This document shows positions 18,136 through 46,214 of a stretch of DNA of 55,963 bases, piece by piece. Every line of letters begins with the position of its first letter. Positions within the stretch are counted from its first letter, which is position 1. The position numbers and the translations under genes are program-made. The DNA comes from Streptosporangiaceae bacterium (lineage in GTDB: Bacteria; Actinomycetota; Actinomycetes; Streptosporangiales; Streptosporangiaceae): contig JBOHCG010000001.1 in assembly GCA_050698735.1 (NCBI GenBank), forward strand, positions 1 through 55,963, written 5' to 3'. The notes below the pieces were generated by a model. That model was not told where the DNA came from, did not search any database, and worked only from the letters and a program-made list of their open reading frames with translations.

Positions 18136-18136
18136 C

Positions 18137-20519: not shown

Positions 20520-20534
20520 ATGGGCGCAACCTGC

Positions 20535-21572: not shown

Positions 21573-21605
21573 GCTAGTCACCGGGCGCGGGGGACTCGCT
21601 GAGCC

Positions 21606-22559: not shown

Positions 22560-22594
22560 CCCGCCTGTCGGCGAACCCGGGGAAGGAGCGGCGC

Positions 22595-23461: not shown

Positions 23462-23506
23462 GGTCGGTGCGCACCGCTCCCGGACGTGCACGGCAGAAGG
23501 AAGGAA

Positions 23507-24148: not shown

Positions 24149-24157
24149 GGCTGGGTC

Positions 24158-24718: not shown

Positions 24719-24747
24719 CGGCGCTGGCCTAGCGGGGTGGAGGCGAC

Positions 24748-29954: not shown

Positions 29955-30290
29955 GGGCCGCAGCGCGCAGACGGCCCGCACTCGCGGCATTGCTCGTGTC
30001 TTACTTGCTCGCAGCCAGCCTGCAGTGCCCAAGCCAGCAGCATCGCGGGTGACGAGGAAGATCTCACTCCAGTGCCGATACGGGAGCAGCCGTGCCAGCG
30101 CGGCGAACCGCGCCCGGTGTCCGCTGGCTCACCGGACCTTGCCGACGGGCGGCGCAGGACCGCGCTTTCGTGCCGAGCACCAGCAACTCAGCATCCTTCG
30201 CACATGCCCCTGCTGAATAGCGGCACAACAAGACCGAGTATCCGGTGAACCAGCAGGTAGACGATCTTGAGCAGCACCTGGCACGCAATC
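29955..30290 (-). pseudogene. N-terminal remnant of an rve-type (integrase-core) transposase, multiply frameshifted
   Basis: VLLKIVYLLVHRILGLVV...AKDAELLVL...FAALARLLPYRHWSEIFLVT, read across three frames, matches the N-terminus of the transposase at 50465-51549 (MLLTIVYLLVRRVLGLAV..AKDAELLVLRHEN...). Confidence 0.5.
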
Positions 30291-30459
30291 GTCACAGCGC
30301 TGTCCCTGGCCGTTGGCGAACGCGCAGATCGACCATGCAATTGATTATTCGAGTGGCACAAGATGCAATGGAGTAAAGTCGAGTCAGTCCACACTTGCTG
30401 GCAAGGGGACTGTTGAAAGCATTCGTTCGGGAGACCCGGGTGTAGTCGGAATACTTCCG

Positions 30460-31686
30460 CTATCGCCGTCGGCTGGCTTCCCGGAGCAGTTCCCGGTGCT
30501 GGTGGAAGAGGTTCGCTTCGCGAGTCACTTTCATGCATTCGACGAGGTCCGCCGACATTGCCGCGTGGCCGGCGACCGTACGTGAGTGACGGTAGAGGGC
30601 GCGGAGCACCTGAACCCTGCGCAGCGGGGTCAAGTTGTCCAAGGTGGCGGCGGCTAGCCGCAGCCGTGCCGCAAGTTGGCTGGCTTTGCGCAAGCTCCGT
30701 GGCGAGGCGTGGGAAATGTAGATGTTCAGTAGCCGATATTCGGTAGCAACTTGTGCGATAGCGTTCGCAGTGGTGAGGCTGAGGGCGCGGTCTGCCATTG
30801 TTTCTGCCTGGTAGATGGACATTCGCGGAACGGACGCTAGCGCCGTCAGCTCCTGCTCCAGTAGCGACCGCGTCCAGACCTTCGGTTCGTACGAGCCTCG
30901 GAGGAATCCCGTGGCTTGGCGTATGGTGGCCAGAGCTTGGGCATTGAGACCGAGTGTATTGAGTGATACGGCTTCGGCGTGCATGGCGGTGACGCGGAGC
31001 TGAGCTGCCTCGTCGCGCTGCCGCTTGGGGATGTCGCCGCAGGACAATGCGACGAGAGCTCGCCGTGCGTGCCCGAGCGCCTGATCGTGTCGGTCCCACA
31101 CTTGTGCGGTGTCATGAAGGAACATGAGCGCTTGGGTGTATTCGACCGGCGTGCGCATCGGGTCGATGGCCTTGGCCAGCGGGGCCGCTAGGGACCATAC
31201 CCGCGCATACGCGGACCTGTTGGCGGCGGCATCCGGAGAACCCGCCGCGACTTGGTGAACGTCGCCGATCATCGTCAGCGCAGAGCGGGCGGCGTCCAAG
31301 GGCATGGTCGTGGGCGGCCCGTGCTGCTTCGCCGACGCCTTGGCCATGGCGATGTGATAGCGCAGGATGTCACGGCGTTCCGCCTCAGTGCACAGTTCGG
31401 CCGCGAGTTGGCTGGCGCGTTCTTCCGAAGGGGTCTTCAGGAACCGAAAAGTTTCGACGATCTCAAGATCCGGTCTCGTCAGTATGTCGGCCCAGTACGA
31501 CTCTCGCCGCCGTGTTCCCGCAGCGTGCAAGGGCTTCATCAGGAACGAGAGGTATGCCTCGGTCAGGCCGAGGGCCCGCGCGAGGTCTCGCTGCGACCCG
31601 TAATCACGCAGGTAGGCGCGGATCAGGTCCAAGTACATCTGACGGTGCAGAACTCGGAGCCGCAAGGTCTCCGCTGCGCTGCTCAT
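30460..31686 (-). CDS. HTH-containing helical (TPR-like?) protein of unknown function
   Basis: 408 aa. N-terminal YLDLIRAYLRDYGSQRDLARALGLTEAYLSFLM looks like an XRE-type HTH; the rest is alpha-helical. A truncated second copy lies at 43455-43700. Confidence 0.5.
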   Translation of the reverse strand: MSSAAETLRLRVLHRQMYLDLIRAYLRDYGSQRDLARALGLTEAYLSFLMKPLHAAGTRRRESYWADILTRPDLEIVETFRFLKTPSEERASQLAAELCTEAERRDILRYHIAMAKASAKQHGPPTTMPLDAARSALTMIGDVHQVAAGSPDAAANRSAYARVWSLAAPLAKAIDPMRTPVEYTQALMFLHDTAQVWDRHDQALGHARRALVALSCGDIPKRQRDEAAQLRVTAMHAEAVSLNTLGLNAQALATIRQATGFLRGSYEPKVWTRSLLEQELTALASVPRMSIYQAETMADRALSLTTANAIAQVATEYRLLNIYISHASPRSLRKASQLAARLRLAAATLDNLTPLRRVQVLRALYRHSRTVAGHAAMSADLVECMKVTREANLFHQHRELLREASRRR

Positions 31687-31903
31687 ATCGGACTGCCGGA
31701 TCTCGAACTCAGCACGATCTTAACCAGACTGCCGCTTCGAATCGCGTGACGCTGGATTCGACAGCTCATCACGTCAAGCGAGGGAGAGGACGATGGATCC
31801 GGACGGTTAGTAACATCGCGTGCCGCTGGTGTATACATGCCGGGGCCCGGCACCAGCGGTTGGATGGAGCGATAACCTCGCCGGATAGGCTCAGCCCGAA
31901 ACA

Positions 31904-32869
31904 TTAATAGGACCATCGCGCGCCGTAGGCCAAGCCAGTCCGGAGATATTCGTATCGCAGGCGAATATCACCCGCAGCATCGGGCCATACGAGCGCATCG
32001 GGTTCAGCGAAATCATCAACCATTCCGCGCGGCAGGCCGACCATATTCCAGACGCGCGTAGGCTGGGTGTCCGAGCTGAACCGGACGCGGAGATCAAACT
32101 CGTCACAGCGATGTAGCGGCTGAAAAGTATATCTGGGATTGAAAGGCTGATCGCCGGGAACCGTGATTGCCACGCCTACCTCGTGGGCCTCTCCGCGGTC
32201 AAGCGGGTGGGGAAATTGGATGAAATAGCGGAAGTAACTCGTAGAAGGCCGTTCGCAGTGCGCCAGCGATCCGCCGTAGATGACCTCGAACTCCGGCCTT
32301 TGCTTATGTTCACCATCAAGGTCGCTACCCTGTGGACCCGCGATCACAGGCCGAGGAATACTGGTCGAAATGACGAACTCCGTCAGGCCATCGACGTTCG
32401 CGACTACCGTGCGTTCCTCGATAGCGGTCGGCTGCTCTCCGTCGAGTCGCAGCAGTGTCCGGAGCCGGGCTAGGTACCAGCGTCTCGGCATGTACTCGCT
32501 ATCTTCCAAAGCCTGCGCACTCGCTGAGGCCTCGGCAAACCTGATCGCCTCATCGACACGACGTCTGGCGGTGCGTACGTCCCGCTCCAGCCTAGTCGCG
32601 AGCCAGCGCATCCGTTCGTCGAGGAACCTGTGCCGCGCGTCCTGATGGAGAGCCAAGGCCGCTGACAACGCCAATCCCAGGTCTTCCGGCAGGTTCCTGA
32701 CCAACTCATCGAGGAATGCGCGCAACCTGAGCCGGGCCTCCTCCTGACTAGCCAGCGGATCGATACCCGCCAGTGCCCGAAGGGACGGGCCCACACGCTC
32801 TTGCAGGTCACTGGTTATGATCCCACGCCCGCGGCGCAGGCGGCTCAACTCATTGCCAATTGCACCCAT
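31904..32869 (-). CDS. Hypothetical protein (321 aa), paralog of 43717-44889
   Basis: ATG at 32869 chosen from the alignment with the paralog (MGAIGNELSRLRRGRGI / MGALGDELSRLRRGRGI). Helical N-half, beta-rich C-half. No motif I recognise. Confidence 0.5.
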   Translation of the reverse strand: MGAIGNELSRLRRGRGIITSDLQERVGPSLRALAGIDPLASQEEARLRLRAFLDELVRNLPEDLGLALSAALALHQDARHRFLDERMRWLATRLERDVRTARRRVDEAIRFAEASASAQALEDSEYMPRRWYLARLRTLLRLDGEQPTAIEERTVVANVDGLTEFVISTSIPRPVIAGPQGSDLDGEHKQRPEFEVIYGGSLAHCERPSTSYFRYFIQFPHPLDRGEAHEVGVAITVPGDQPFNPRYTFQPLHRCDEFDLRVRFSSDTQPTRVWNMVGLPRGMVDDFAEPDALVWPDAAGDIRLRYEYLRTGLAYGARWSY

Positions 32870-33088
32870 GGCAGAGCTTCCGTTCCCCTCCAAGAGGGCC
32901 CACCAGTCACAGCATGGCATCGCCCGTCCTGGCCAGATTCTGTCACTTCGACCCCAAAATGTCCATCTTTTGACCATGAACAGCACGTCTTCGCGATGCG
33001 ATAATAGCTGCCAAGGTGGGGGTGCATGACACGCTTCATCGTCATGATCAACTAACCCTCCGGCATCGCTAGATGAGGGAGTCGGAGC

Positions 33089-33811
33089 ATGTCAAGCTTC
33101 CAGGAAGGCCGGGCGCAGGGAGAGAAGCTCGGCGGGATGATATTCATCTTCTTCCGCATCGCCTGGTTCTTTCTTAGGATCGCATGGTGGCTTAGCCAGT
33201 TCCTGATCTTCTCGCTTTTCGCAGGCATATTCGCACTCGTCAAGCTCGGTCGGCCAAAGCCAGATATCACTACGGGCTTTGGGCATTTTTCCGAGGATGG
33301 GACGCGGTGGCAGGATCAGCACACCGGTCAGTGGTACCCGATCAGTGAGGAGATCCGGGAACACTGTGTGATCGAGGCGAGCATGGGCGGCCTGGCCTGG
33401 CGGCGGAACGCGCTGTCGCGACTGGTAAAGCGCGGCGCGATCTATCGGTACACGTTTGCCGCGGTTAGCGACGCCAACGCGGGCAGGGCTGTTGAGCCTT
33501 TCGATCAGGAAGAATTCCTGAACGAAGCACGGCACAACATTACACTCGATCACCTCGACCCTGAATATGCGGCAAACGACCCTTACAATCTCAGCCAGAA
33601 CCGTGACGAGGCGGTCAGTGCACTGGACCATCTGGAGGGGCTTCTGACCAATAGGGGATGGGAGCGAGAAGATGATCCGTCGCCCAGCCATTGGTACGCT
33701 AGGAAATACGGCAGGCGCATATGCTGGGACGAGCCGATTCCCGCAGAGGCTGCAACAGCGGAAGCTACAGCCGATGCTCCTATCACGGACGGATCCCCGG
33801 CAACCACCTGA
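33089..33811 (+). CDS. Membrane protein of unknown function
   Basis: Two hydrophobic helices near the N-terminus (GGMIFIFFRIAWFFLRIAWWLSQFLIFSLFAGIFALV). Divergent from 31904-32869. A degenerate second copy starts at 45110. Confidence 0.45.
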   Translation: MSSFQEGRAQGEKLGGMIFIFFRIAWFFLRIAWWLSQFLIFSLFAGIFALVKLGRPKPDITTGFGHFSEDGTRWQDQHTGQWYPISEEIREHCVIEASMGGLAWRRNALSRLVKRGAIYRYTFAAVSDANAGRAVEPFDQEEFLNEARHNITLDHLDPEYAANDPYNLSQNRDEAVSALDHLEGLLTNRGWEREDDPSPSHWYARKYGRRICWDEPIPAEAATAEATADAPITDGSPATT

Positions 33812-34224
33812 GGCGCCGGTAACTGAATAGGTCTGCGTTTATCTGTAGTCCATGCGGTGCGCTGGGTAGCCGCTCACGACGAATAGGTCGCCGACACAAC
33901 ACTCGCTCCAGTCTTTTTGCCCGTTCTTCCAGCCCTTCCCGAACTCAGGCATGAACTCGCGCGGAAGGTTTGCCGCCCGGGCAGATTCCGGGAACGGCTC
34001 CAGGTAATCCGGGTATGCACGCAGATCGGTCGCGAAATTCTGTGGATCTTGCGCGAAGCTACACCGCACCAAGCACCTGACCAAGATGCCTGACGAGAAG
34101 ACGGTACAGGCAGCTGGTGTTTTAAAGGTCCATTAGTCAGTTAGAATAGTCTCACGCAACGAACTCGAGCCGCCGGGCTGCCCATTGGTGTCGGCGTGCT
34201 CTACCAGCCGAGACGTGAGACGAC

Positions 34225-34833
34225 ATGAACGAGCAAACCCTCTTCCCGCTCGCCGCCGTCCGAGGAGCGGACCCGGCACGCACTGGCGGGCTTCCCGTGG
34301 CCGCCGACGAGGCGTTTTCTTCCGCGGCGAGGATCCCGCTCGATGCGGACTCGTGGGTCGACTACGTCCCGGGCTGGCTCTCCGGTGACCGCGAGCTGAT
34401 GGCAGTGCTACTGGAGCAGGTGGTGACCGAACCGCGGCTCACCGCCGAGTACTCCGTCATCGCCGACGCTCCGCAGCCCGTCCTGCGGTACCTGGCACAG
34501 GTACTGTCAGCGCACTACGGGAAGTCCTACACACGCCTGTGGATGAACTGGTACCGGGACAACAACGACGGCACCGACTGGCACGCCGATCGCCCGGCTA
34601 ACCAGTTGGACGAGGCAGTGATCCCGGTCCTCAGTCTGGGGGCGTCCCGCCGCTTCCTCATCCGGCGGACCGGCGGCCCCGGGGTGAGCAAGGCGATCAA
34701 GGTGCACGGCGGCGACCTGGTTGTCATGGGCGGCCGCTGCCAGAAGGACTACGAGCACACGGTCCCCAAGCAGAAGCAGTCAGCCGGCACCCGGCTCAGC
34801 CTCAACTTCTCAACCGTCGTGCCGCCGAGGTGA
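34225..34833 (+). CDS. AlkB-like Fe(II)/2OG dioxygenase
   Basis: WMNWYRDNNDGTDWHADRP (HxD), GDLVVMGGRCQKDYEHTVPK (distal His) and TRLSLNF (Arg) give the AlkB/2OG-FeII_Oxy_2 pattern. Confidence 0.7.
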   Translation: MNEQTLFPLAAVRGADPARTGGLPVAADEAFSSAARIPLDADSWVDYVPGWLSGDRELMAVLLEQVVTEPRLTAEYSVIADAPQPVLRYLAQVLSAHYGKSYTRLWMNWYRDNNDGTDWHADRPANQLDEAVIPVLSLGASRRFLIRRTGGPGVSKAIKVHGGDLVVMGGRCQKDYEHTVPKQKQSAGTRLSLNFSTVVPPR

Positions 34834-34835
34834 CG

Positions 34836-34985
34836 GTGCCGACGAGAGAGATTCCGCCACTCCCAGGGGGAGCAGCAACCCGGGACCGCATCGTCCAGAC
34901 GGCGGCCGATCTCATGTATATGAAGGGCGTGCACGCCACCACCCTGGACGACGTCTGGGCGGCCACAGGCACCAGCAAGTCCTAA
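34836..34985 (+). pseudogene. N-terminal HTH fragment of a TetR-family regulator, cut after ~49 codons
   Basis: GTG 34836...TRDRIVQTAADLMYMKGVHATTLDDVWAATGTSKS-stop. This is the canonical TetR HTH, but the ligand-binding domain is absent. The break coincides with the start of the 250-bp repeat at 34992. Confidence 0.55.
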
Positions 34986-34991
34986 TTGAGA

Positions 34992-35241
34992 GCCCATAAG
35001 TTTGATCCACCTCGCCCCGGCGAGGCTGAGACCTTTGTGTATTTGCGGTGATCATTTGAGGCTATGTTGGCCTTTGTCGAGGAGGGGTCGGTTACTCTAC
35101 CTCCCGGATCGACTATCAAAGTCTAATGTCCACCTGATTAGGCTGCCGAGCCGGTCTCCTCGACGCGGCGGATGGCGGCCCTGGAGCGTGGCCGGGCGCG
35201 GGCAGGCTAACGGGGTGCGGATGCACCCTGCCGTGATGTGC
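34992..35241 (+). repeat. 250-bp direct repeat, copy 1 (3' end of a DUF4254-like gene plus downstream sequence)
   Basis: About 85% identical by eye to 42200-42448. It reads AHKFDPPRPGEAETFVYLR-stop-SFEAMLAFVEEGSVTLPPGSTIKV, against the intact C-terminus AYKFDPPRPGATETFVHLRRSFEAMLALVEEGSVTLPPASTIKDYCPTD in copy 2. Confidence 0.7.
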
Positions 35242-35270
35242 CGCCGCGCCCCGGGGCACACCCCGTTAGC
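35206..35270. terminator. Long-loop inverted repeat downstream of the oxygenase gene
   Basis: GCTAACGGGGTG (35206-35217) pairs perfectly with CACCCCGTTAGC (35259-35270) across a 41-nt loop. It lies 36 nt past the stop of 35306-36340. There is no clear U-tract, so its function is uncertain. Confidence 0.3.
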
Positions 35271-35305
35271 GCCGGTCTTTGTCAATCTCGACTTTAAGTG
35301 CAGAC

Positions 35306-36340
35306 TTAAACGGGAGCATCTCCTGGCTCACTGCGAACCATATATGGGACGCCGTCAACAAAGTGCGGAGAATGCGGACCTCTTGAGTCGACGTTCATCG
35401 TCTTGATCAACCAACGAGTCGCGAGTTGTCCAAGATCTACAACTTCGCTGACCTCTCTGTTGTGCACACAATAGTTGTTGCATATGATCACGAAGTCTCC
35501 CGGCTGGATGTCGAGGCCTCGCTTCACCGCATGGATGGTATTCACGACGTCACGGAGCACGCATTCTGCCTCGGCGTCCAGGCCTTCGGTCCTATTCTCG
35601 GATATGCGAAGACCCCAGGCGGCACTCACCAGCGAATGGACTGGTGGTTCAAGGGGCGTTTGAAATCGGGCTTGCCGCGCCACTGCGAGCGTCGTCGCAT
35701 CCAGTCTGGCGATCACGTCCTTGTTGCTCGCGAACGTGGTGTAGACGGCGTTTGCGCCACCGGAGCGCATTCCGAGCATGTATAGGTAATCGGGTCGGAC
35801 AAAGTGATTTGCTAGATCTCTGTGGAAAGGAATTGGTCCGAGCGTCTTTTGAGGCAGGCTGTCTGCCAAGCCGCGCTTTGGGTAGATGTCATGGAAGACA
35901 TCGCCGTCATTGGCGTTTTGGTACGAAATCCCTGGTGTTCCGGCCAGTTCGGCGTAGAGGGTCAGGAAGCCCTCGGCCACGAACGTTGTTTTCAACGCGC
36001 GCTTCGATAGTACCGGTTCGTCATGATCGAATACTGGTAGCGACAGGTCAATTGGGGTGTTCTTTATCAAACCCGTCGGATTGTCTACAACTGACTGGGC
36101 TCGTCGATGGGTCACGTACTCGCGAAGCCGGGACGGAGTGGCGACGGATTGCGTAATCTTGCGGATTTCGGCGCAGAAGTCTTCATAGCAGCGATATGGA
36201 TTGGCCTTCACTGCTTCAAGAGAATCAACGAGATTGTCGCGTTCCTGGTCGTCCATGATCAAGTCGACCTGCAGCGATGGAATATCGGGCTCTGACACCG
36301 CGCACCCCGGGTAATAGGTTCTGTAGTTGCTATGCGCCAA
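35306..36340 (-). CDS. Clavaminate-synthase/TauD-like Fe(II)/2OG oxygenase (amino-acid/peptide hydroxylase type)
   Basis: 344 aa with a TTG start. GPIPFHRDLANH (HxD) and a distal NNYCVHNRE (His+Arg), with spacing like the AsnO/VioC/CAS-type enzymes. Lower GC than the surroundings. Confidence 0.6.
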   Translation of the reverse strand: MAHSNYRTYYPGCAVSEPDIPSLQVDLIMDDQERDNLVDSLEAVKANPYRCYEDFCAEIRKITQSVATPSRLREYVTHRRAQSVVDNPTGLIKNTPIDLSLPVFDHDEPVLSKRALKTTFVAEGFLTLYAELAGTPGISYQNANDGDVFHDIYPKRGLADSLPQKTLGPIPFHRDLANHFVRPDYLYMLGMRSGGANAVYTTFASNKDVIARLDATTLAVARQARFQTPLEPPVHSLVSAAWGLRISENRTEGLDAEAECVLRDVVNTIHAVKRGLDIQPGDFVIICNNYCVHNREVSEVVDLGQLATRWLIKTMNVDSRGPHSPHFVDGVPYMVRSEPGDAPV

Positions 36341-36784
36341 CAGTACAGCGGTTCTCCAAGTTTTAGCTAGGTTCTAACTTAGCTCGGCTCATGAGTACAG
36401 AGGGCTGGGGACCTTGGTCTTGAACTCGTCCGGGTTGGTGACGCTGGCGGGCCTCACCCGCTTGTGCTTGATGTTCTTCCAGGCCCATCTCGTGCCGTGA
36501 CCCTTGCAGCGGTGCGCTCGGCCAGCATGACCGTCTCGGGGTCAGCGCGTAGAGGTAGCGCAGCAGGTCCCGCACCTGGTCGAAGGTCTGGTCCAGGAGA
36601 ATTGGCTACGGTAGGTCGAGGACGGGGTGCTCAATGCTGGGGTATTCGCGGCGTACGAGGTTGATCCTGCGACAAGCAGGACGCCCACCGGCAGATCACG
36701 CTGAGCCGCAACCGACGCACGCCCGCTCACGATCCATCGCCCGCCAAGATCAATAACAACGGCTTCAAGATCACAGTACAGCCG

Positions 36785-37302
36785 TTACGAAGGGTCGGGA
36801 GTGGCGCGGTGACTCGCTGGTTTTAGGGCCTTAGGCCTTCGTGGCCGCCGGTTTCCCGCTTGCTTGCGCCATCCCAGTGCGTGTCCTTGGCGGGGTCTGC
36901 CCGTTGTCCAGTCCCGCCGGCCTTGAACCGTGCGGTTTTCCGCACACGGCTCACCGGCGCCGTTCACTGTCGGAATTCTGCCTTCCCCCGCTGTCCCGGA
37001 AGGGCCTGGGGGTCGACGACGATTTCCGACAAGACAGCAAGTCCGAGCTGGTCCGGGGACTGGAAGGCGGCGACCGACTAGCCGAACTCCCGTGACCGGC
37101 GGTTGCGCTTGCTGATGAATAGCGCAAGCCTCACCTGCGCGTACCTCATGATCTTCCCGATGCGCGTAGCAGAGTTGCCGAACCGAAGTAAGCGGCCCAG
37201 CCGCCCGGGAACCGGATCAGGTCCTTCGCGGTCCACTTCGGGTCCAGCAGCAGCCGGGGACCTGCGGGCCAATTCCCTGCTCCAGTCGCGGCCGTGCTGC
37301 AT
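36785..37302 (-). pseudogene. C-terminal remnant of a group II intron reverse transcriptase/maturase
   Basis: LLRFGNSATRIGKIMRYAQVRLALFISKRNRRSREFG matches the maturase X-domain pattern YFR.GN....F...D.Y...RL..F..KR..R. Downstream frames are broken. No RT domain is present. Confidence 0.45.
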
Positions 37303-37405
37303 GGCTTTGTCCGCGGGTCAGCTAGTGAAGCTAGACAGCGAGTGGAATCTTTGGGAGAATACACGTATCTCGGCACGTACAGCCCTTTTGGGAGGGGAGA
37401 ACCAG

Positions 37406-37612
37406 ATGCCAACAAGCACACCGACAGGCCTCTCAGAGCGCGTAGCTCGTTTGCGAGCAGGCCTGTCATCTTCCGCTGAAGGTCATGACACGCTCTCGAA
37501 TATCTCTGCTACGGGCAGCGTCGAGGCTGACCAGTCGATCGGGGCCACGTGGCCGCAGGGCTGGGGGCAGGGCTGGGGGCAATACGCTGGCTACGAGGGT
37601 GATTTCGAGTAA
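37406..37612 (+). CDS. RiPP precursor peptide candidate (68 aa) with a C-terminal W-x-Q / Gly-rich repeat core
   Basis: ATG at 37406, 5 nt after GGGAGGGGAGA. Sequence MPTSTPTGLSERVARLRAGLSSSAEGHDTLSNISATGSVEADQSIGATWPQGWGQGWGQYAGYEGDFE. There is a 12-bp tandem repeat, GGCTGGGGGCAG / GGCTGGGGGCAA. It lies immediately upstream of the rSAM/SPASM gene. Confidence 0.65.
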   Translation: MPTSTPTGLSERVARLRAGLSSSAEGHDTLSNISATGSVEADQSIGATWPQGWGQGWGQYAGYEGDFE

Positions 37613-37908
37613 GACGACCCGAGTTGGGCGTGTTTGCCAGAGGCCTCGATTCGAAGACTTGCAAGAGTCTTGGATAGGCGGTCTGGAAGGCGTGCTTCGG
37701 CGCTGCCTCGTTGCGGTCGTGGCGCCGAAGCGAGACGGGCATCCCATTGTCGGCGGGCCGATGTTAGTATCGGCTTGGTTTTGTCGATATTTGGAAAGCT
37801 CGCTATATAAGCTTGACCAGCGCACCCACGCATTAGGCGATCTCCGGACCTACAGAGATCTTCTCTATGTCTTTACTGGCAGATTCCTTAGCCTAGAAGG
37901 GAAGGCTG

Positions 37909-39063
37909 ATGGCCGCCGATGCTCATCAAGTCGTTCACCGGCCCCTTGTTGTATTGCAGCCGACAACCTTTTGCAACATCGATTGCCAGTACTGTTACCT
38001 TCCCGGCCGCTCCAATACGAGGCGGATGTCGGTTGACGTAATTCGCCGGATCGCTGCCGAAGTGCTGGGGACCAAGCTTTACGACGGGGAGATCCACTTT
38101 CTCTGGCACCTGGGAGAGCCGCTGTCGGTCCGTTCTGACTTTTACGAGGAAGCCTTCTCGGAGATTGCGCGCATTAATCAAGCTTATGGCAGAGAATATG
38201 TTCACACGTTCCAGACCAACGCGACACTGATAGATGAGGGCTGGATTGAGCTCATCAAAAAGCATCACGTGCGGATAGGCGTAAGTTTGGATGGGCCGGC
38301 ATTCATCCACGATCGGGAGCGAATAACACGGAGAGGAACGGGTACGCATGCGGCTGTCCTCAGGGGAGTACGACTGCTGCAGGAGCACGGTGTCTCGTTC
38401 GCCGTTATAGCGGTGTTGACGAACTTCACCCTGGATTATCCCGATGAATTCTTCAATTTCTATATCGAGCATGGGATAAGCCGAGTAGGCTACAACATCG
38501 ATGAGATAGAAGGTGTTCATACTTCAACGTCTTTCACGCATCATGAGGCAGTTGCGCGCTACAAGCGGTTCGTAGCTCGCATCATTCAACTGTCCGATTC
38601 GAGTGGCGGCGCCGTGCGGTTTAGAGAGGTGTGGGACAACATGCGCTCGATTGTAATGGGAGCTGACCCGTACAATCTGGCGAACAAGCCCCTACGGATC
38701 CTGAATTTCGATGTAGATGGAAACTTCAGCACCTATTGTCCTGAACTCGTTGCCGCGAAAAGCGACAGGTACGGGGACTTTGTCATGGGAAACATTCTGA
38801 CGAATGGGCTAGACGACCTCCTGACCAACCCGATCTTTCAGTTGGTGAACCGCGAGGTTGAGGAAGGCCTCGCGCTGTGTGAGCGAACCTGTCCGTATTG
38901 GAGTTATTGCGGTGGAGGCGAGCCTTCGAGCAAGTTCTTCCAGTATGGCCGCTTTGACGTTGCAGAGACCACTACTTGCAGGATCCACAAGCAAGCAACA
39001 GTTGACGTTCTGGTTGATTATCTGGAAGCGAAGTTGCCGAGCAGCGTCCAGGGCAAGCTGTGA
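37909..39063 (+). CDS. Radical SAM / SPASM-type peptide maturase (GRRM / cyclophane-forming-like)
   Basis: VVLQPTTFCNIDCQYCYLP (CX3CX2C), GEPL, and a C-terminal Cys cluster YCPELVAAKSDRYGDFVMG ... CERTCPYWSYCGGGE ... TTCRIHK. RBS AGAAGGGAAGG. Confidence 0.85.
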   Translation: MAADAHQVVHRPLVVLQPTTFCNIDCQYCYLPGRSNTRRMSVDVIRRIAAEVLGTKLYDGEIHFLWHLGEPLSVRSDFYEEAFSEIARINQAYGREYVHTFQTNATLIDEGWIELIKKHHVRIGVSLDGPAFIHDRERITRRGTGTHAAVLRGVRLLQEHGVSFAVIAVLTNFTLDYPDEFFNFYIEHGISRVGYNIDEIEGVHTSTSFTHHEAVARYKRFVARIIQLSDSSGGAVRFREVWDNMRSIVMGADPYNLANKPLRILNFDVDGNFSTYCPELVAAKSDRYGDFVMGNILTNGLDDLLTNPIFQLVNREVEEGLALCERTCPYWSYCGGGEPSSKFFQYGRFDVAETTTCRIHKQATVDVLVDYLEAKLPSSVQGKL

Positions 39064-39479
39064 AGGACATGGAGGCGGCGTACAGTCTGCTTGTTGAGCT
39101 GATGGATCGTATATCCTACAAGCCCGGGTACGAATTCGCCCTCGAGAGAGTAAAGGGTGACGTAGCGCGTGTGTCACTTACTTGTAACACGCTGCCGAAC
39201 TCCTACGAACCGACTGCGACAATCGGCTTGACAATCATGAACGGTATCAACCTGCGAACTATTGCGACAGCAGCCGATGCACTTCAGGCGTTTGCTGCGG
39301 TTGTCGCTCGCTTTGAGCTTCATGAGACTGCGGAATTCTTCAAATGTGATGGGCGGACTATATTTGATGCCCACGCAAGGGGAGACAGCTTCGGCGAGTT
39401 TCTTTGGTCCGACTTTGCCAGTCTCGGGGGCTTGTATTTGAGGGCGCTCAAAGACGCCTTGGAGAAACAAGACGAGTAA
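39060..39479 (+). CDS. Hypothetical protein (139 aa) translationally coupled to the rSAM gene
   Basis: GTG 39060 overlaps the rSAM stop (alternative ATG 39069). No recognisable motif. Confidence 0.45.
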   Translation: MKDMEAAYSLLVELMDRISYKPGYEFALERVKGDVARVSLTCNTLPNSYEPTATIGLTIMNGINLRTIATAADALQAFAAVVARFELHETAEFFKCDGRTIFDAHARGDSFGEFLWSDFASLGGLYLRALKDALEKQDE

Positions 39480-39542
39480 GGCGTATGGGAGGCTGCTTGC
39501 GCGCTCGGGGCAATACGGGCCAGCTGTATCTGGGAGGCTCTG

Positions 39543-40490
39543 ATGCGTGACGATGGCACCTTGATTACCATCGTTGGCGGTTACGGGGATGCATTCCTTG
39601 CCCTTCCGAGTATTCGGGAAGTTGCAAGACGTCGCGGTCGCCAGCAGGTATATCTTCTCTGCCCCGAGGCGCATATTTCTGCCTTCTTCGCTGATCTGGA
39701 TCTGAACTATTTGCCGATCCCTCCCGACATGGAGAATGTAGCGGCTACCGACTTGGCTCCTCTTTCCATCCAGGAAGTGATAAGTTTCAACGTTTACTAT
39801 CCATGTGCGGTCGATCATCTGGCTGCAGAAGTATTCGCAAGCGCGCGTTGGCGAGGGTTTTTTGATAGATACGGGCGGTTGATGGTTCGCCCCTCCGCGC
39901 TGGTCAACAAGCACAAGAGAGACCAGTATTTTGAAGTACTTGGTCTGGATCCCACCTACAAACCGATGGACCGCCGCCTGGCATTGAGGCCGGAGAGAGT
40001 GGAGGATATTGCCGCTTTCTGCCTAAAGGAGCGCCCTCCGGGCGGGCGGCGATTCTATACTCTCCATCTTGATACTCAAGATATTAAGATGTGGCCGGTG
40101 GAGTCTTGGGTTACGGTTGTTGCGTACCTATGGAATCGCTGGCGGGCATGGCCGCTCATCATCGGTAAGCCTACCGAGTCATCAGATGCCTTGCTGCAGG
40201 AATTTTCATTTGCCCGGAGTATGTTTTCATATCCAGACGTAAGGGATCAGGTATGCGGCATCTCGGTGGGGCACGCATTCTTGGGCGTAGACTCGATGTT
40301 TGCTCATATCGCTGAGAGCCTTCGGATCCAATCGGTTGTGCTCTTTGGTCCTTTCGACCTGACAGTATGGGGTCCGACTAGCGACACGTCGTTGGCGATC
40401 CAAATGAAGGTGCCGGAGCTTCTGCGGGAGTTGAATCCGGTCGATGTGATTGAAAGCCTAGATGCCACACTGAGTGAGGCTCTTGGGTAG
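39543..40490 (+). CDS. Glycosyltransferase family 9-like (heptosyltransferase fold)
   Basis: N-terminal LITIVGGYGDAFLALPSIREVARR and C-terminal FLGVDSMFAHIAESLRIQSVVLFGPFDLTVWGP match the GT9 pattern (GDxL..xP ... G.DSG..H.A.A...P.V.LFGPT). Confidence 0.6.
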   Translation: MRDDGTLITIVGGYGDAFLALPSIREVARRRGRQQVYLLCPEAHISAFFADLDLNYLPIPPDMENVAATDLAPLSIQEVISFNVYYPCAVDHLAAEVFASARWRGFFDRYGRLMVRPSALVNKHKRDQYFEVLGLDPTYKPMDRRLALRPERVEDIAAFCLKERPPGGRRFYTLHLDTQDIKMWPVESWVTVVAYLWNRWRAWPLIIGKPTESSDALLQEFSFARSMFSYPDVRDQVCGISVGHAFLGVDSMFAHIAESLRIQSVVLFGPFDLTVWGPTSDTSLAIQMKVPELLRELNPVDVIESLDATLSEALG

Positions 40491-40738
40491 GGGGCTGGCG
40501 GTCGAAATGCGGTGACTATCGAACATCTGGAATATTGCCGCACCAAGCGGGACGCGTGCAGATATGATCAGCTCCTGTGTCAACTGGTCTCCTTGATCTA
40601 CAGATCCGGCGCTCGACTGCCTTGTGGCGGGTCGCTTTCGCGAGGCGGTCAGAATCGATTCGTCAGGCGAGCGCTCCGTCGTCGGCGATGACGGGAAAGG
40701 TTCAGTCAGCGAGCAGTCGAAGACAAGAGGATGGCGTG

Positions 40739-41602
40739 ATGGCTGAGGAGAGCGTACTTGCATGGCATTGGTGTCGACGCGATAGGCGTCTGGGATCGAT
40801 AGACCGCCGGGTGGTTCGCGCTGGTGGCGTGTATGACATAGATGGACCAATCGTGCTGTGCAAGCGAGGTCTGCACGGTTGCCGCACGGCTATGCAGGCG
40901 CTCCATTACGCCTCGGGTGACGTGATATGTCGTGTGCGGCTGTCTGGGGAGATCCGCGAGAATTATGACAAACTCGCCGCATCCCGCCGCGAGGTTCTGT
41001 GGTTGGCCGAGGCCGGGGCTACGCTCCACCGGTTCGCCGTCTGGTGCGCTGAGGCCTCGCTCGCTCGGTTGGAGACGAGGGTGACCGTTGATCCCCGGTT
41101 GCACGAGGCGCTGGCGGTGAAATTGCGCTGGGTGGAAGGCCTCGCATCGGACGACGAGCTGGCCGCGGCGTGGGCCGCTGCCAGGGAGGTAGACAGGGAC
41201 GCCGCCAAGGTCCCGGCCTGGACGGAGGCTAGTGACGCACCGTGGGAGGCGGCTAGATCGTCCGCCTGGCTTTCAGCGTGGGACATGGCTTGGATCGATA
41301 CTGGGGCCGCAGTGAGGGACGCAGCCTGGAACGCCGCGAAGGGCGGATCCTGGGGTGCAACGGGGAGGGCTGCTTGGGAGGCTGCCTGGGATGCAGGTGA
41401 GGCTGGCTCAGTGAGGGACGTGGCCTGGAATTCGATCAGGGACGCGGCGTGGGCTAAAGCATGGGACGCCGTGAGGGCGGCCCAGTCTGCGGAGCTTGAG
41501 CGGCGCCTCTTGTCACTCGCTCCCGCGTTGTCTGAGTACACCGCGGATGCTACAGCCACAAGCAGACGGTCCGTGGACGGTGGCACCGGGACGCTTGAGT
41601 GA
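40739..41602 (+). CDS. Hypothetical protein with a C-terminal Ala/Trp-rich repeat region
   Basis: ATG at 40739 after AAGAGGA. N-domain ...IVLCKRGLHGCRTAMQALHYASGDVICRVRLSGE. The C-terminus carries degenerate repeats (AAWAAAREV, APWEAARSSAW, AWNAAKGGSW, AAWEAAWDAG, VAWNSIRDAAWAKAWDAV). Confidence 0.45.
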   Translation: MAEESVLAWHWCRRDRRLGSIDRRVVRAGGVYDIDGPIVLCKRGLHGCRTAMQALHYASGDVICRVRLSGEIRENYDKLAASRREVLWLAEAGATLHRFAVWCAEASLARLETRVTVDPRLHEALAVKLRWVEGLASDDELAAAWAAAREVDRDAAKVPAWTEASDAPWEAARSSAWLSAWDMAWIDTGAAVRDAAWNAAKGGSWGATGRAAWEAAWDAGEAGSVRDVAWNSIRDAAWAKAWDAVRAAQSAELERRLLSLAPALSEYTADATATSRRSVDGGTGTLE

Positions 41603-41797
41603 GACATTGGAGAGGACAAGGCGACGCGCCGCAATACGAGGTCGGTTAAGGTGATCCGGAGCTCAGAGCGCGAGCAGGCAAGCACGTCGACAAGGATTTG
41701 TGGGTTTCTTGCCTTGCGTGTCGAACTGGAACGGAACGAGATCCTGAACGGGTAGTACCATCAGATAGTTGATGATCACATCGCTAGGCTAGGTGTT

Positions 41798-42349
41798 GTG
41801 CCCATGGCCGACTACGACGGAAGCAAGCAGTCCGCCGATTTGGTTAGCCGGTCTGTGGGGCCTGTCCTGGATAAGCTGTCTCATATCTTGGATGGTACGA
41901 GGCGCACTGATGGCGGTGAGATGGCGAGAATTGAACTCCGTCGTGTCGTGACTTGTCTACTACGAGTACACGAAGGGCAGTGGGAGCTTGAGGCATCGTG
42001 CCGAGCGGTCGATGTAAGCGCTATTGAGCTCGGACATCTGAAGCGCGCAATAGACGAATCAAATGCTCGGCGAGTCGCATGCATCAATTACATTGATGAC
42101 GCAATCCGAGAGTACGTGCCTACCGGTGGGCGCGACACGCTCTTGTGGCCCTTGACTGCCGGTCAAATGATCGACAATCTGTTGATAGCCGGATTGAAAG
42201 CCTATAAGTTTGATCCGCCTCGCCCTGGCGCGACTGAGACATTTGTGCATTTGCGGCGATCATTTGAGGCTATGTTGGCCCTTGTTGAGGAGGGGTCGGT
42301 CACTCTACCTCCCGCATCGACTATTAAAGATTATTGTCCAACCGATTAG
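41798..42349 (+). CDS. Hypothetical protein (possibly DUF4254-like)
   Basis: 183 aa. WELEASCRAVDVSAIELGHLKRAIDESNARRVACINYIDDAI resembles what I recall of DUF4254, a family often found next to GT9 genes. Its 3' end is part of the 250-bp repeat. Confidence 0.4.
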   Translation: MPMADYDGSKQSADLVSRSVGPVLDKLSHILDGTRRTDGGEMARIELRRVVTCLLRVHEGQWELEASCRAVDVSAIELGHLKRAIDESNARRVACINYIDDAIREYVPTGGRDTLLWPLTAGQMIDNLLIAGLKAYKFDPPRPGATETFVHLRRSFEAMLALVEEGSVTLPPASTIKDYCPTD

Positions 42350-42448
42350 CCTACCGAGCCGGTCTCCTCGAAACGGCGGATGGCCGCCCCTGGAGCGTGG
42401 CCGAGGGCGGCCCGCTAACGGGTCCGGATGTACCTCGCTGTGATGTGC
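42200..42448 (+). repeat. 250-bp direct repeat, copy 2
   Basis: Aligns with 34992-35241; see that entry. Confidence 0.7.
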
Positions 42449-42469
42449 TGGAAGCTGCGATGGTTGCGG

Positions 42470-42585
42470 ATCGTCGCAGTCGGCAACGACGGGACGACGG
42501 AATTCCCCTGCATAGTCTTCTCGCCGGACGGCTTCCGTCTGGCTACGAGCGGCGACCACACAATCAAGATCTCGGGCATGCCATA
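42470..42585 (+). pseudogene. Isolated WD40-repeat fragment
   Basis: CIVFSPDGFRLATSGDHTIKI is a single WD40 blade of the same FSPDGK.LA type as in 46432-49284. It has no start and no neighbouring blades. Confidence 0.4.
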
Positions 42586-42789
42586 TAGTACAGTCGCGGT
42601 TTTACGTTTAGTGCTGGCGATGTTGCGGTAAGGATTGGTCCCGCATGCCGCACCGGTGACGCTGAGTAACAGGTTTCGGCTGGGCGGCGTAGTTACACGG
42701 GTGAAATTCGGGGCGGCCGTGCCGTGTTGCCTGATGTGTGACCACAAACAACGACGACACGGCCGTACAGGCCAGCATAGAAGACGTGT

Positions 42790-43455
42790 CCGGGTGCTCG
42801 GCGAGGGCGGATGCGCAGGTCAGGGTGGTGCTGGGGCGGGTGATGGCGCAGCGCCGCAGCATGCCGGGTGCACCGGGCACGTGGAGAATTGCGTCACCAC
42901 GGTGTTCTCCGCGTGGGTGGCCACGTCCGGGCAGGCCTGGGCGGACTTCGACGTGTTCATGCCGGAGCGCTGGGAGAAGGACTGGCGGCGGCGCCGGGCC
43001 GCCCGGATCCGGGCGGGCTGGGACACGCGACCAAGCCGCAGCTGGCCATCGATCAGATCGGGCGGCTGCTGGATGCGGGCCTGCCCGCGAAGTGGGCGGC
43101 GTATGCGAGGTGTACGGCCGCAGTGGCGAGCTGCGGCGGTTCTGCGAGTCCAGGAACCTGGCCTATGTGGCGGTCGTCCCCTGCGACTTCCGCGTCACGC
43201 TGCCGTCCGGCTCTGTCATCCGCGCTGACCAGGCGGTGAACGACGCCGTCTTCGAGCGGCGCTCGTGCGGGAACGGGTCCAAAGGCCCCCGGTTCGCGGA
43301 CTGGGCGCTGACCGCCACCGCCAGCCCGCGGCACGTCCTGCTCATCCGCCGCCTGATCTCCCGCCCGGACCAGCTCACCTTCTACCTGTGCTGGGCGCCG
43401 CCAGGCCAGCCCGCGACCATGACCTATTTCATCACCATCGCCGGGCGCAGGTGGT
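42790..43455 (+). pseudogene. IS701-family transposase remnant (multiple frameshifts, both ends missing)
   Basis: Reading across three frames gives ...HAGCTGHVENCVTTVFSAWVATSGQAWADFDVFMPERW..., ...TKPQLAIDQIGRLLDAGLPAKWAAY..., and ...EVYGRSGELRRFCESRNLAYVAVVPCDF...FERRSCGNGSKGPRFADWA...LLIRR...FYLCWAP...ITIAGRRW. Confidence 0.6.
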
Positions 43456-43700
43456 CGGCAGACGTACTTGAAGGCTTCGGCGACCTCGTGGCCCGCTGCG
43501 CAAAGCAGGACGCTCCAATGCCCGGCTTGCCGGCCGTCGGCTGTCAGTCGCAGCGGCTCGAGCAGGTAAGAGGCATAGGCCTGGGAAAAGCCGAGAGCGC
43601 TCGCCAGGTCGCGCTGGGACCGTAGTCGACGAGATAGGCACGGATCAGATCGATGTAGGTCTGCCGGTGCATGAGCCGGTCTAGGTCCCACGACCGGCCG
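43455..43700 (-). pseudogene. 5' fragment of a second copy of the 30460-31686 HTH gene
   Basis: MHRQTYIDLIRAYLVDYG..QRDLASALGFSQAYASYLLEPL aligns with LHRQMYLDLIRAYLRDYGSQRDLARALGLTEAYLSFLMKPL. It contains a frameshift, and the rest of the gene is replaced by the IS701 remnant. Confidence 0.5.
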
Positions 43701-43716
43701 ACGGCGATCTCCCGCA

Positions 43717-44889
43717 TCACCGGGAACTCTGCACAATCTTAACCAGACCACCGCCTCGCGCCGCATGATGCTGGATTCGATATCCCATTACGTCAAGCGA
43801 GGGAGAGGACGATGGACTGGGACGGTTAGCACTATCGCGAACCGCTGGTGTATGCATGCTCGGGGCCCCGGCACCAGTGGTCGGAGGCAGTGACAACCAT
43901 TCCGGATAGACCGAACGCGAACATAAAAAGGACCACCGCGCGCCGTAGGCCAGGCCAGTCCGCAGGTACTGATACCGAAGATGAATGTCACCTGCGGCAT
44001 CGGGCCGCACGAGCGCATCGGAGTCAGCGAAATCATTCACCATCCCGCGCGGCAGGCCGACTATATTCCAGACGCGTGCGGGCAAGTTACGCGAGGCGAA
44101 CCGAATGCGGAGATCGAACTCGTCACAGCGATGCAGCGGCTGATGAGTGTACCGTGGATTGAATGCCTGGCCATCGGGAATCGTGACTGCCACGGCGACC
44201 TCGTGGGACTCTCCCCGGGCAAGCGGGCGCGGGAATTGGATGAAATAGCGGAAGTAGCTCGCCGCAGGCTGCTCATGGCGCGACATCGATCCGCCGTGAA
44301 TGACGCTTACTTCCAGTCGTTGCTTGTGCGCGTCGGTGAGGCTGCCCTGGCGCGGATCCGCGCTCGTAGGACGAGGAATACCGGCCGAAATGACGAACCC
44401 TGTGAGTCCGTGAACATTCGCGACCACCGTGCGCTCCTCGATGGCAGTCGGCTGCTCTCCATCGAGCCGCAGCAGCGTCCGGACCCGGGCCAGGTACCAG
44501 CGGCCTGGCATGTAATCATTAGCTTCCAGAGCCTGCGCGCCTGCTGATGCCTCGGCGAGGCTGATCGCCTCATCGACGCGACGCCTGGCGGTGCGTGCAT
44601 CTCGTTGCAGCCTGGCCGCCAGCCAGCATATTCGCTCGTCGAGGAACCTGTGCCGCACGTCCTCATCGAGAGCCAGGCCCGCCGAAAACGCAAGCCTCAG
44701 GTCCTCCGGCAGATTGCTGGCGAGTTCGTTGAGGAATGCGAGCAACCTGCGGCGGGCCTCCTCCTGGCTTTCGGCCGCATCGATCCCGGCCAGCGCCCGC
44801 AGGGTAGGACCCACGCGCTCACGTAGGTCACTGGCCATGATCCCGCGGCCTCGGCGCAGGCGGCTCAACTCATCGCCTAACGCACCCAT
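43717..44889 (-). CDS. Hypothetical protein, paralog of 31904-32869 with a 69-aa read-through extension
   Basis: Collinear with the paralog up to ...GLAYGARWS. The position matching the paralog's TAA stop is TTA here (43924-43926), so the ORF runs on to 43717. Confidence 0.5.
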   Translation of the reverse strand: MGALGDELSRLRRGRGIMASDLRERVGPTLRALAGIDAAESQEEARRRLLAFLNELASNLPEDLRLAFSAGLALDEDVRHRFLDERICWLAARLQRDARTARRRVDEAISLAEASAGAQALEANDYMPGRWYLARVRTLLRLDGEQPTAIEERTVVANVHGLTGFVISAGIPRPTSADPRQGSLTDAHKQRLEVSVIHGGSMSRHEQPAASYFRYFIQFPRPLARGESHEVAVAVTIPDGQAFNPRYTHQPLHRCDEFDLRIRFASRNLPARVWNIVGLPRGMVNDFADSDALVRPDAAGDIHLRYQYLRTGLAYGARWSFLCSRSVYPEWLSLPPTTGAGAPSMHTPAVRDSANRPSPSSSPSLDVMGYRIQHHAARGGGLVKIVQSSR

Positions 44890-45109
44890 AGTAGTACTTC
44901 CGCTTCCCTCGGAGACGGCCGACCGGCGCGGCATGGCCTGCGCGTCTTGGCCAGATTCTGCCACTTCAGCCACATAATGTCCATCCTTTGACCATGAATA
45001 TCGAGCCTTGGTGGTGCGATAATCGCTGCCAGATGGGGGCTAGATGGCAGGTTCTCCGGTCATGATCGACAACCCCCATCCGGTATTGCTAGATGAGGGG
45101 GTTCGGAGC

Positions 45110-45386
45110 ATGGCAAGCTTCCAGGAAGGCCACGCTCAGAATAGTCCGCCGATACCCGATCGCTTGCTACGGGAGGCCGTCACGCCGCCGGCGACTATTC
45201 GCGGCTGGCCGTTTTTTTGATAAGATTCGCTTCCGCTGGGGAGGCGCTGGTGAAATTGTAGTGGGCATCTCCATCGTGGAGGGCGCTCACAGCGTAATAT
45301 CCGGTATTCTTTTCATCCTGCTAACGTTAGGCGTCACGACGTGGATCTTCACCGGATTCGGCGTCCGAGGTCGATCAACCCCGTGA
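45110..45386 (+). pseudogene. Degenerate second copy of the 33089-33811 membrane-protein gene
   Basis: The upstream region and the first codons (MASFQEGHAQ vs MSSFQEGRAQ) are conserved. The frame stops after 36 codons, and a hydrophobic segment continues in another frame. Confidence 0.35.
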
Positions 45387-45524
45387 CCCCGGCGCGTTCA
45401 CGAAGCACGTCAGCCCGTACTCAGGTCCGTCAGGAGAGGGCCAAGCCGAATCAGGCACCCATGCCAGAAGACTTGAGGAGGTACCGAAGTCATTCGGCGA
45501 GCACGGGCACAGGCCGCCGGGCCA

Positions 45525-45543
45525 GTGACAAACCAAGTGACAA
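45525..45543. promoter_or_regulatory. Putative arm-type direct repeats (GTGACAA x2, 12-bp period) with no adjacent integrase
   Basis: GTGACAA at 45525 and 45537, 124 bp left of att core 2. The geometry matches 10726/10738 relative to core 1. Confidence 0.35.
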
Positions 45544-45648
45544 CCGCGCCATGCAGTGCCAGACGCAGCACGATACGCTCAGACACTGACACCTTCCTGA
45601 CCTGCAGTAATCCGACCCAGCTCGACATCATCAGACGAAACCATCAAG

Positions 45649-45694
45649 CATGGTAAGGAGAAGGTCTACGGTTCGATTCCGTAACGGGGCTCCA
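45649..45694 (+). repeat. att core 2: 3' portion of tRNA-Thr(GGU), followed here by CCA
   Basis: The 44 bp are identical to 10853-10896, and C45692 followed by CA at 45693-45694 gives a genomically encoded CCA end. There is no tRNA 5' half upstream. Confidence 0.75.
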
Positions 45695-46214
45695 GGTGAG
45701 GGTAATTTTTCGATCCTGATTTCATATCTTGATTTCAAGATCAAGTGACTAACTATGGCGGTTCGGCTCCAGTCGGCAGCGGGCAAGGTGTGACGTACCT
45801 GGACGCCAGGGCCTTCTGGTCTGCAGTAATGCGTTACGGACAGTCGAGTATGCGGAATTCTGGCGTCGCTCGTCTCCGTGAAACGGACAATGGGTTCGTC
45901 CGGCTAGGTCGCGTCGAGTCGGATTAGCGGAGACCGAGACGATGGGATCGTCTGGGGACGTCCGGCTTCGGCTGCCGTTGCCTGGGTCGTTGTCTCTTGA
46001 GCTGTCACTTCGCTTCTGGGTGAAGCGGACCGCGTCGGACGCGTGCATATGGCGAGGCCGCACGTTGACCGCTGCCCGGGGACAGCCCCGCGCCGGGGTA
46101 CCGAGCATGGCCAGGGCACTAGGCGGCCCGGTACCGCCGCGTCCGCACTTCTTTCAGACAGGCCGGTCAGTGGGCAGACCCGTTGCCTGAGCCGCGGAGG
46201 GAGGAGGCGCTTGT

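Follow-up and report, generated by a model that had tools for sequence, protein, structure and literature searches.

The stretch of DNA analysed here (hereafter, the window) comprises 55,963 nt of a Streptosporangiaceae genome (contig JBOHCG010000001.1, positions 1 to 55,963). It harbors a 68-codon open reading frame (ORF) that encodes three W-x-Q units and is followed on the same strand by the gene of a radical SAM (rSAM) peptide maturase and by several accessory genes. The features of the locus are as follows:

34985..35241, + strand: partial copy of the DUF4254 gene (3' part), a rearrangement scar (258 bp, 86% identical to 42193-42448)
35306..36340, - strand: clavaminate-synthase-like Fe(II)/2-oxoglutarate oxygenase, 344 aa (weak GntD, CS1 and VioC matches)
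37332..37360, + strand: promoter-like site TAGACA, 17 nt spacer, GAGAAT, 5' of the precursor gene (consensus scan; putative function)
37406..37549, + strand: predicted leader, residues 1-48, with the motif L-S-E-R-V-A-R-L-R-A-G-L (R12, R17 and L20 invariant)
37550..37582, + strand: predicted core, WPQ-G-WGQ-G-WGQ, three W-x-Q units with four-residue spacing (six invariant residues, shuffles, covariation with the rSAM clade)
37583..37612, + strand: acidic C-terminal follower YAGYEGDFE and stop codon (Q-Y/F-A-G-Y-E/D-x-D-x-E kept only in the close clade)
37694..37731, + strand: RNA stem-loop GCUUCGGCGC ... GCGCCGAAGC in the precursor-rSAM intergenic region (fold z = -3.43)
37909..39063, + strand: radical SAM peptide maturase of the GrrM/OscB family, 384 aa (TIGR04261, Pfam Radical_SAM)
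39060..39479, + strand: 139-aa partner protein, p139 (start overlaps the rSAM stop codon)
39543..40490, + strand: GT9-like (heptosyltransferase-like) glycosyltransferase, 315 aa (Pfam PF01075, Glyco_transf_9)
40739..41602, + strand: DUF7666 protein with Ala/Trp-rich C-terminal repeats (Pfam DUF7666, 32.1 bits; in 6 loci)
41798..42349, + strand: DUF4254 protein, 183 aa (Pfam DUF4254, 47.9 bits; in the four closest loci)

The ORF at 37406-37612 (+) encodes 68 residues, MPTSTPTGLSERVARLRAGLSSSAEGHDTLSNISATGSVEADQSIGATWPQGWGQGWGQYAGYEGDFE, ending at a stop codon, and a ribosome-binding site, GGGAGGGGAG, lies 7 nt 5' of it. The reading of codons 37550-37585, from W49, which begins at 37550, to Y60, which finishes at 37585, is WPQGWGQGWGQY (W-P-Q-G-W-G-Q-G-W-G-Q-Y), exactly as an initial annotation made from the window alone had given it. 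A six-frame translation of the window contains W.Q.W.Q.W.Q a single time, and 200 composition-preserving block shuffles produced no occurrence of it. When this gene is compared with its counterparts in four orthologous loci, most nucleotide differences are third-position changes; in the comparison with L010, 9, 3 and 18 differences were counted at codon positions 1, 2 and 3, respectively, corresponding to 17 synonymous and 12 non-synonymous codon changes. The 68-codon ORF is a real, conserved coding gene under selection.

Among 5.8 billion proteins searched, 14 precursor homologues with identities of 69-96% were found, and related loci supplied more distant ones. In the resulting 18-sequence alignment, W49, Q51, W53, Q55, W57 and Q59 are invariant, as are M1, R12, R17, L20, A35, G37 and D42, while the middle residue of the unit (P/A/T/G/E/D) and the spacer (G/S/T/N) vary. 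This pattern supports the earlier proposal that W-x-Q, present three times, is the substrate unit. The small ORF that had been expected at homologous loci is indeed there, conserved and directly upstream of the rSAM gene.

The gene order precursor, rSAM, p139, GT9-like, DUF7666, DUF4254 is kept in L006, L007/L008 (a Trebonia sp. MAG) and L010, in which the rSAM enzymes are 96, 90 and 87% identical to that of the window. L012 (74%) has the same order without a DUF4254 match, and precursor, rSAM and p139 occur together in Solwaraspora sp. WMMD937 (L011) and in L016/L094.

The 12-bp tandem repeat described in the initial annotation was recovered with Tandem Repeats Finder at 37555-37581 (period 12, 2.2 copies, 100% matches), its units GGCTGGGGGCAG and GGCTGGGGGCAA differing by a single base. 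Its interpretation as a sign of recent expansion has to be abandoned. In the scheme GGN-TGG-GGN-CAR, 9/12 bases are set by the Trp, Gly and Gln codons; relatives encode the same three units with other wobble bases (L006 GGC/GGG; L008 GGC CAG GGA), and the close clade is uniform in having three units, with synonymous drift among the relatives. Thus, the duplication is old and the identity at the DNA level is unremarkable. In the comparison of repeat numbers, which had been suggested as a check, three units were counted in 15/15 close homologues, which speaks against recent expansion. The number does vary across the wider family, with four in Solwaraspora sp. WMMD937 and L016/L094 and four in L012, which additionally carries a duplicated WGQY-acidic block, WGQY(A/T)EVDAEEED.

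The adjoining rSAM gene begins 296 nt 3' of the precursor ORF. Its product scores 405.6 bits on NCBIfam TIGR04261 (cutoff 310, E = 1.7e-121), residues 16-373 aligning with model positions 1-362 of 363, and has 1289 homologues at E <= 1e-30; relatives bear the NCBI name "GRRM system radical SAM/SPASM domain protein". The cluster motif C22-x3-C26-x2-C29 and C324, C328, C334 and C357 are invariant in 26 homologues. A full SPASM motif comprises seven Cys, and this family keeps fewer, namely the four C-terminal ones; one further Cys, C277, is found only in the enzymes of the Gln clade and is Ser in the Asn clade (see below). A scan of genome contigs with the rSAM sequence returned only distant relatives (37-43% identity). 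The best sequence match in the PDB is anSME 4k37, which covers residues 14-190 only. Assignment to neighboring equivalogs was rejected on score in every case: AmcB (NF041718; 285.3 bits against a cutoff of 425), DynA (136 vs 450), YhhB (111 vs 445), FxsB (90 vs 370), XyeB (80 vs 450) and the anaerobic sulfatase maturase (TIGR03942; 143.8 vs 349).

These data raise a key question: is Gln at the third position of the unit a peculiarity of this locus or a property of its enzyme lineage? In a comparison set of 94 related loci, the residue two positions after each Trp was scored in the small ORF upstream of the rSAM gene. At enzyme identities of 50% or more to that of the window, Gln occupies position 3 in 39/44 W-x-X3 triplets; below 50%, Asn does so in 229/257 and Gln in 0/257. 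Gln at position 3 tracks, and is specific to, the enzyme clade of the window. Eight positions separate the enzymes of the Gln clade from those of the Asn clade (L65/V, L68/A, A105/G, D198/E, N244/A, N266/S, C277/S and W331/F, Gln-clade residue first). More speculatively, the switch from Asn to Gln may be matched by such clade-specific residues, for instance D198 against the Glu of the Asn clade; hypothetically, this swap would offset the difference of one methylene between Gln and Asn.

The N-terminal part of some 48 residues had been taken for a leader, and the alignment agrees with this, since it carries the motif (E/D)R(V/I)xx(V/L/I)R (here ERVARLR), which is common to W-x-Q precursors and to canonical W-x-N GRRM precursors. 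The latter possess an N-terminal hydrophobic, signal-peptide-like segment, while the W-x-Q precursors are without it. The precursor peptide gave no relevant match in NCBIfam at E <= 0.01 and none in Pfam. It was not placed in TIGR04260, the Gly-rich-repeat precursor family of the GRRM system; the leader motif and the aromatic-x-X3 logic are the only common ground. As previously remarked, the precursor displays no cleavage motif, and the cluster likewise contains no protease; an exporter and an RRE domain were also sought in the cluster and not found. The aromatic residues that follow the core (Y-A-G, Y-E-G, F-E) had been counted among the potential ring motifs, but they are not conserved as such: Y-A-G has Gly, a residue without C-beta, at position 3; the third residue of Y-E-x changes between homologues (G/A/P/D/E), some of which have N or S in place of Y63; and most homologues have Val in place of F67.

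Non-coding elements of the locus are conserved as well. The -35-like TAGACA hexamer is invariant and the -10-like hexamer similar across five orthologous loci. The 10-bp GC-rich stem between the precursor and rSAM genes is also kept in five orthologous loci, with a compensatory double change from C-G to U-A in L010 and a G-U pair in L013. The stem-loop has no U-tract, and Rfam yielded no match anywhere in 36300-38000. Its role may be to stabilise or attenuate the transcript and in this way to set how much precursor is made relative to enzyme.

Triceptides are defined by aromatic-to-C-beta links on aromatic1-x2-x3 motifs, and their synthases have been mapped to about 3,900 pathways (PMC11499958). 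At the locus studied here, three such motifs, the W-x-Q units, lie in a small ORF adjoining an rSAM enzyme of the three-residue cyclophane-forming type. It is therefore highly probable that the product of the 68-codon ORF is a triceptide precursor, from which a ribosomal peptide with three-residue cyclophane rings would arise, and the earlier suggestion of such a substrate now has behind it a RiPP precursor that is conserved and adjoins an enzyme of the GrrM/OscB family (TIGR04261). One Trp-to-Gln side-chain ring is predicted at each of the three W-x-Q units. The ring chemistry, including ring formation itself and the Trp and Gln carbons that take part, we infer by analogy with characterised enzymes, in particular OscB, which joins Trp C7 to Asn/Asp C-beta and Phe C4 to Asn C-beta between residues i and i+2 (PMC11002830).

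The same enzyme and the same units would also be compatible with a bond at another place, at Gln C-gamma or another atom, or with a C-N or C-O bond, any of which would put the product outside the strict triceptide definition. Chemical reasoning lends some weight to C-gamma, because the C-beta of Asn/Asp adjoins the side-chain carbonyl and the equivalent carbon in Gln is C-gamma; WprB joins Trp-C5 to Arg-C-gamma on three WPR motifs (PMC11851443), and the eight conserved positions at which Q-clade and N-clade enzymes differ point the same way. WprB, however, belongs to a different rSAM group, and the characterised enzymes use C-beta even on Arg, Lys, Ser and Ala, where no radical-stabilising carbonyl is at hand (PMC11002830, PMC11499958), so we regard such a bond as unlikely. 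The four-residue spacing permits, in addition, a reversed register, Q-x-W, which would close two rings (Q51-G-W53 and Q55-G-W57) instead of three. The precursors of L011 (WEQSWPQSWEQSWEQSW) and L016/L094 have one extra C-terminal Trp without a Gln partner, and the ending of L011 and L016 in Trp with no later Gln would fit W-(xQxW)n. This register nevertheless leaves W49 and Q59 partnerless although both are invariant in 18 sequences, and characterised family members act on aromatic1-x2-x3. Decisive here are sister clades whose triplets are contiguous, DWSQWSQWSQRQ in L021-L023 (WSQWSQWSQ) and DWSD-WRQ-FDQ-WPQ-SY in Actinomadura algeriensis (L093): in these, Q stands beside the next W, and aromatic-x-(Q/D) is the sole i/i+2 pairing and thus the register. 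Two reversed rings are accordingly a very improbable outcome.

Another important question is whether the small ORF is the substrate at all. It could encode a regulatory or unrelated small protein while the enzyme acts elsewhere, for example on the Trp-rich DUF7666 protein with its many A-A-W repeats, and the precursor does match no curated precursor family. Yet the small ORF stays directly upstream of the rSAM gene in loci from which DUF7666 is absent (L011, L016/L094, L093), the Trp repeats of DUF7666 have no consistent third residue, and the small ORF shares its leader motif with canonical GRRM precursors, with a position 3 that covaries with the enzyme clade. We consider this explanation hardly credible.

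If the 68-residue peptide is a triceptide precursor, its maturation might proceed as follows. The leader would be bound by the rSAM enzyme, possibly with the help of p139, which is translationally coupled to it. The enzyme would split SAM to yield the 5'-deoxyadenosyl radical, which would take a side-chain hydrogen from each Gln (from C-beta, by analogy with OscB); the resulting Gln carbon radical would add to the indole of the Trp that precedes it by two residues, whereupon the ring would re-aromatise. Each ring would lower the mass by 2 Da, and three rings by 6 Da. More speculatively, the GT9-like transferase and the clavaminate-synthase-like oxygenase would then decorate the peptide, and a protease encoded at an unlinked site would remove the leader.

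The protein p139 directly follows the rSAM enzyme in 10 loci, down to 45% identity and including loci without the glycosyltransferase. It matched nothing in Pfam, NCBIfam or PADLOC. Its AlphaFold2 model (pLDDT 77; a helix, three strands and two helices) had no significant fold match in the PDB (best E-value 0.18); the only resemblance was to uncharacterised actinophage proteins, with a TM of about 0.6 (phrog_1540). An exhaustive profile search gathered 260 remote homologues. In one of these, the 608-aa protein P0154 (L095, 2340-4166), a p139-like domain (residues 7-134) is fused to a GT4 glycosyltransferase, and its gene comes immediately after that of a GrrM-like rSAM enzyme; the fusion ties p139 functionally to both the rSAM enzyme and glycosyl transfer. 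The same contig starts with the 3' end of a second rSAM gene. We infer that p139 is an adaptor; that its role is RRE-like would be a guess.

The GT9-like protein exceeds the Pfam cutoff narrowly and over its C-terminal half only (22.3 bits vs 22.0), and against the heptosyltransferase equivalogs of NCBIfam all its scores are far under cutoff. It aligns with E. coli heptosyltransferase I (WaaC), keeping K-x-W-P, D-S/T-x-x-x-H and G-P-x-D, and is kept in 7 loci together with an N-terminal G-Y-G-D motif. Elsewhere in the comparison set, L002 (4333-5433, a Gammaproteobacteria MAG) has a GT9 beside a GrrM-family enzyme; L017 (6122-7776) has a weakly GNT-I-like 289-aa protein and a methyltransferase near such an enzyme, and a homologue of this GNT-I-like protein, 68% identical, lies in L093 (6137-7009). 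Sugar tailoring may thus recur in the GrrM family. In L052 (6724-7938), a RiPP enzyme of the MbnB/TglH/ChrH type (Pfam DUF692) is encoded downstream of a distant GrrM-like rSAM enzyme, and its ORF groups by similarity with ORFs in L055, L056, L070 and L076; loci of this type may represent hybrid pathways.

In the PDB, the sequence matches of the oxygenase are clavaminate synthase 1, L-lysine 3-hydroxylase and an asparagine oxygenase. Its orthologue in L010, 84% identical, adjoins the cluster at the opposite end. In the window, the oxygenase gene has a cluster-like GC3 of 0.62, and its product is a candidate tailoring hydroxylase. The AlkB-like gene (34225-34833) may be a further cluster member, being next to the cluster in L010 as well, but its GC3 of 0.88 is host-like. 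For the DUF7666 protein, the listed ORF starts at 40577 and homology begins near 40737; it has C-terminal A-A-W-x-A-A repeats and a weak Imm5-like match and could be an immunity-type protein against the peptide product. The literature on DUF4254 was uninformative as to its role.

It is conceivable, if doubtful, that the W-x-Q clade makes a decorated triceptide of a hitherto undescribed type, whose three Trp-Gln cyclophanes, possibly closed at a carbon other than that used on Asn, are formed by the rSAM enzyme with p139, p139 also recruiting the peptide for glycosylation by the GT9-like, ADP-sugar-type transferase. Should p139-recruited glycosylation prove true, the product would be the first glycosylated triceptide and p139 a new kind of peptide-recognition adaptor.

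The cluster is compositionally foreign to its surroundings. Within 30000-46000, total GC falls from about 0.70 to 0.54-0.63 and GC3 is about 0.55-0.63, as against about 0.88 in the flanks. Two pairs of direct repeats bracket the cluster. The members of one pair, 1.6 kb long and 77% identical (31532-33118 and 43555-45139), encode paralogous 360-aa and 418-aa proteins of unknown function; the other pair is formed by the gene fragment at 34985-35241 and its counterpart at 42193-42448. This fragment also aligns with the terminal part of the DUF4254 genes of L006, L008 and L010, and the oxygenase gene is upstream of the operon in the window and downstream of it in L010. Together, the repeats and the moved oxygenase gene look like a partial tandem duplication followed by deletion. 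Mobile-element genes are abundant in the window, including those for a TraG/TraD-like type IV coupling protein (239-1858), a tyrosine integrase (9457-10707, -) and an IS4 transposase (54138-55271, -). A run of genes of host composition at 16624-25854 (AMP-binding enzyme, aminotransferase, BtpA, aldose 1-epimerase (-), luciferase-like monooxygenase, peptidase S51 and double-SIS protein) may belong to a separate small-molecule pathway. On the other side, the 950-aa product of 46432-49284 (-) contains numerous WD40 repeats (AFSPDGK units) and gives a weak match to HEAT-ARM_XIII in PADLOC; a different large WD40/STAND protein is found on the corresponding side of the cluster in L010.

The triceptide class and the enzyme family are already known, and standard annotation would name the enzyme correctly. 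In the accessible literature, we found no description of W-x-Q with Gln at position 3, of the four-residue spacing, of a precursor without a signal segment, of p139 or of tailoring by a GT9-like enzyme and an oxygenase, and full-text searches for Trp/Gln cyclophanes and glycosylated triceptides returned nothing specific; W-x-Q may have been characterised earlier outside that literature. The locus reveals a natural substrate switch within one enzyme family, from Asn to Gln at the presumed cross-linked position, accompanied by a short list of clade-specific enzyme residues. This switch bears on efforts to engineer cyclophane synthases, which PMC11499958 names as an aim. The conserved GT9-like transferase, the oxygenase and p139 suggest, moreover, tailoring that the accessible literature does not report for triceptides. 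As relatives of the locus are present in the cultured Solwaraspora sp. WMMD937 and Actinomadura algeriensis, the product is experimentally reachable.

Among known systems, the closest is OscA/OscB together with the GRRM system (GrrA/GrrM), the Gly-rich-repeat triceptides of Nguyen et al. 2020 in the summary given by PMC11002830. Both have an rSAM enzyme above the TIGR04261 cutoff, a precursor directly upstream of it with the common leader motif, and a core in which several aromatic-x-X3 units have a carboxamide or an acid as their third residue. They differ in that this residue is Gln here and Asn/Asp there (Gln in 39/44 versus 0/257 triplets), and in that the units recur every four residues here, whereas contiguous WxN runs or GGFRN repeats are found there. 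The signal-peptide-like segment of W-x-N GRRM precursors is absent here, the W-x-N-associated enzymes are only 38-44% identical to the rSAM enzyme of the window, and the accessory set here consists of p139, the GT9-like transferase, DUF7666 and DUF4254. A detectable relationship also extends to the cyclophane synthases AmcB, YhhB, XyeB, FxsB and DynA/DarE, all of them rSAM maturases that make aromatic-to-sp3-carbon links, although the enzyme described here stays under all of their scored cutoffs.

WprA/WprB/WprC (PMC11851443) is alike in having three Trp-Pro-x units per precursor, each ring being formed independently, and WprC, of ~100 aa and no recognisable family, is required together with the rSAM enzyme, a role that p139 may, in concept, share. 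In contrast, WprB was found by expanding rSAM groups of the StrB/WgkB type, not GrrM, and WprA has WPR motifs 18 residues apart with a Trp-C5 to Arg-C-gamma bond. Minviopeptin (MicA-D, PMC12912966) differs in its PasB/darobactin-like rSAM enzyme, in its motifs (YSK, HAS and FTK) and in using an ADP-ribosyltransferase where a GT9-like enzyme occurs here; furthermore, MicC cleaves at Gly, while the oxygenase described here resembles amino-acid beta-hydroxylases. Nevertheless, it too is a triceptide with three aromatic-x-x units that undergoes nucleotide-sugar-type transfer (ADP-ribosylation) and Fe/2OG processing, and it thus provides a precedent for the tailoring proposed here.
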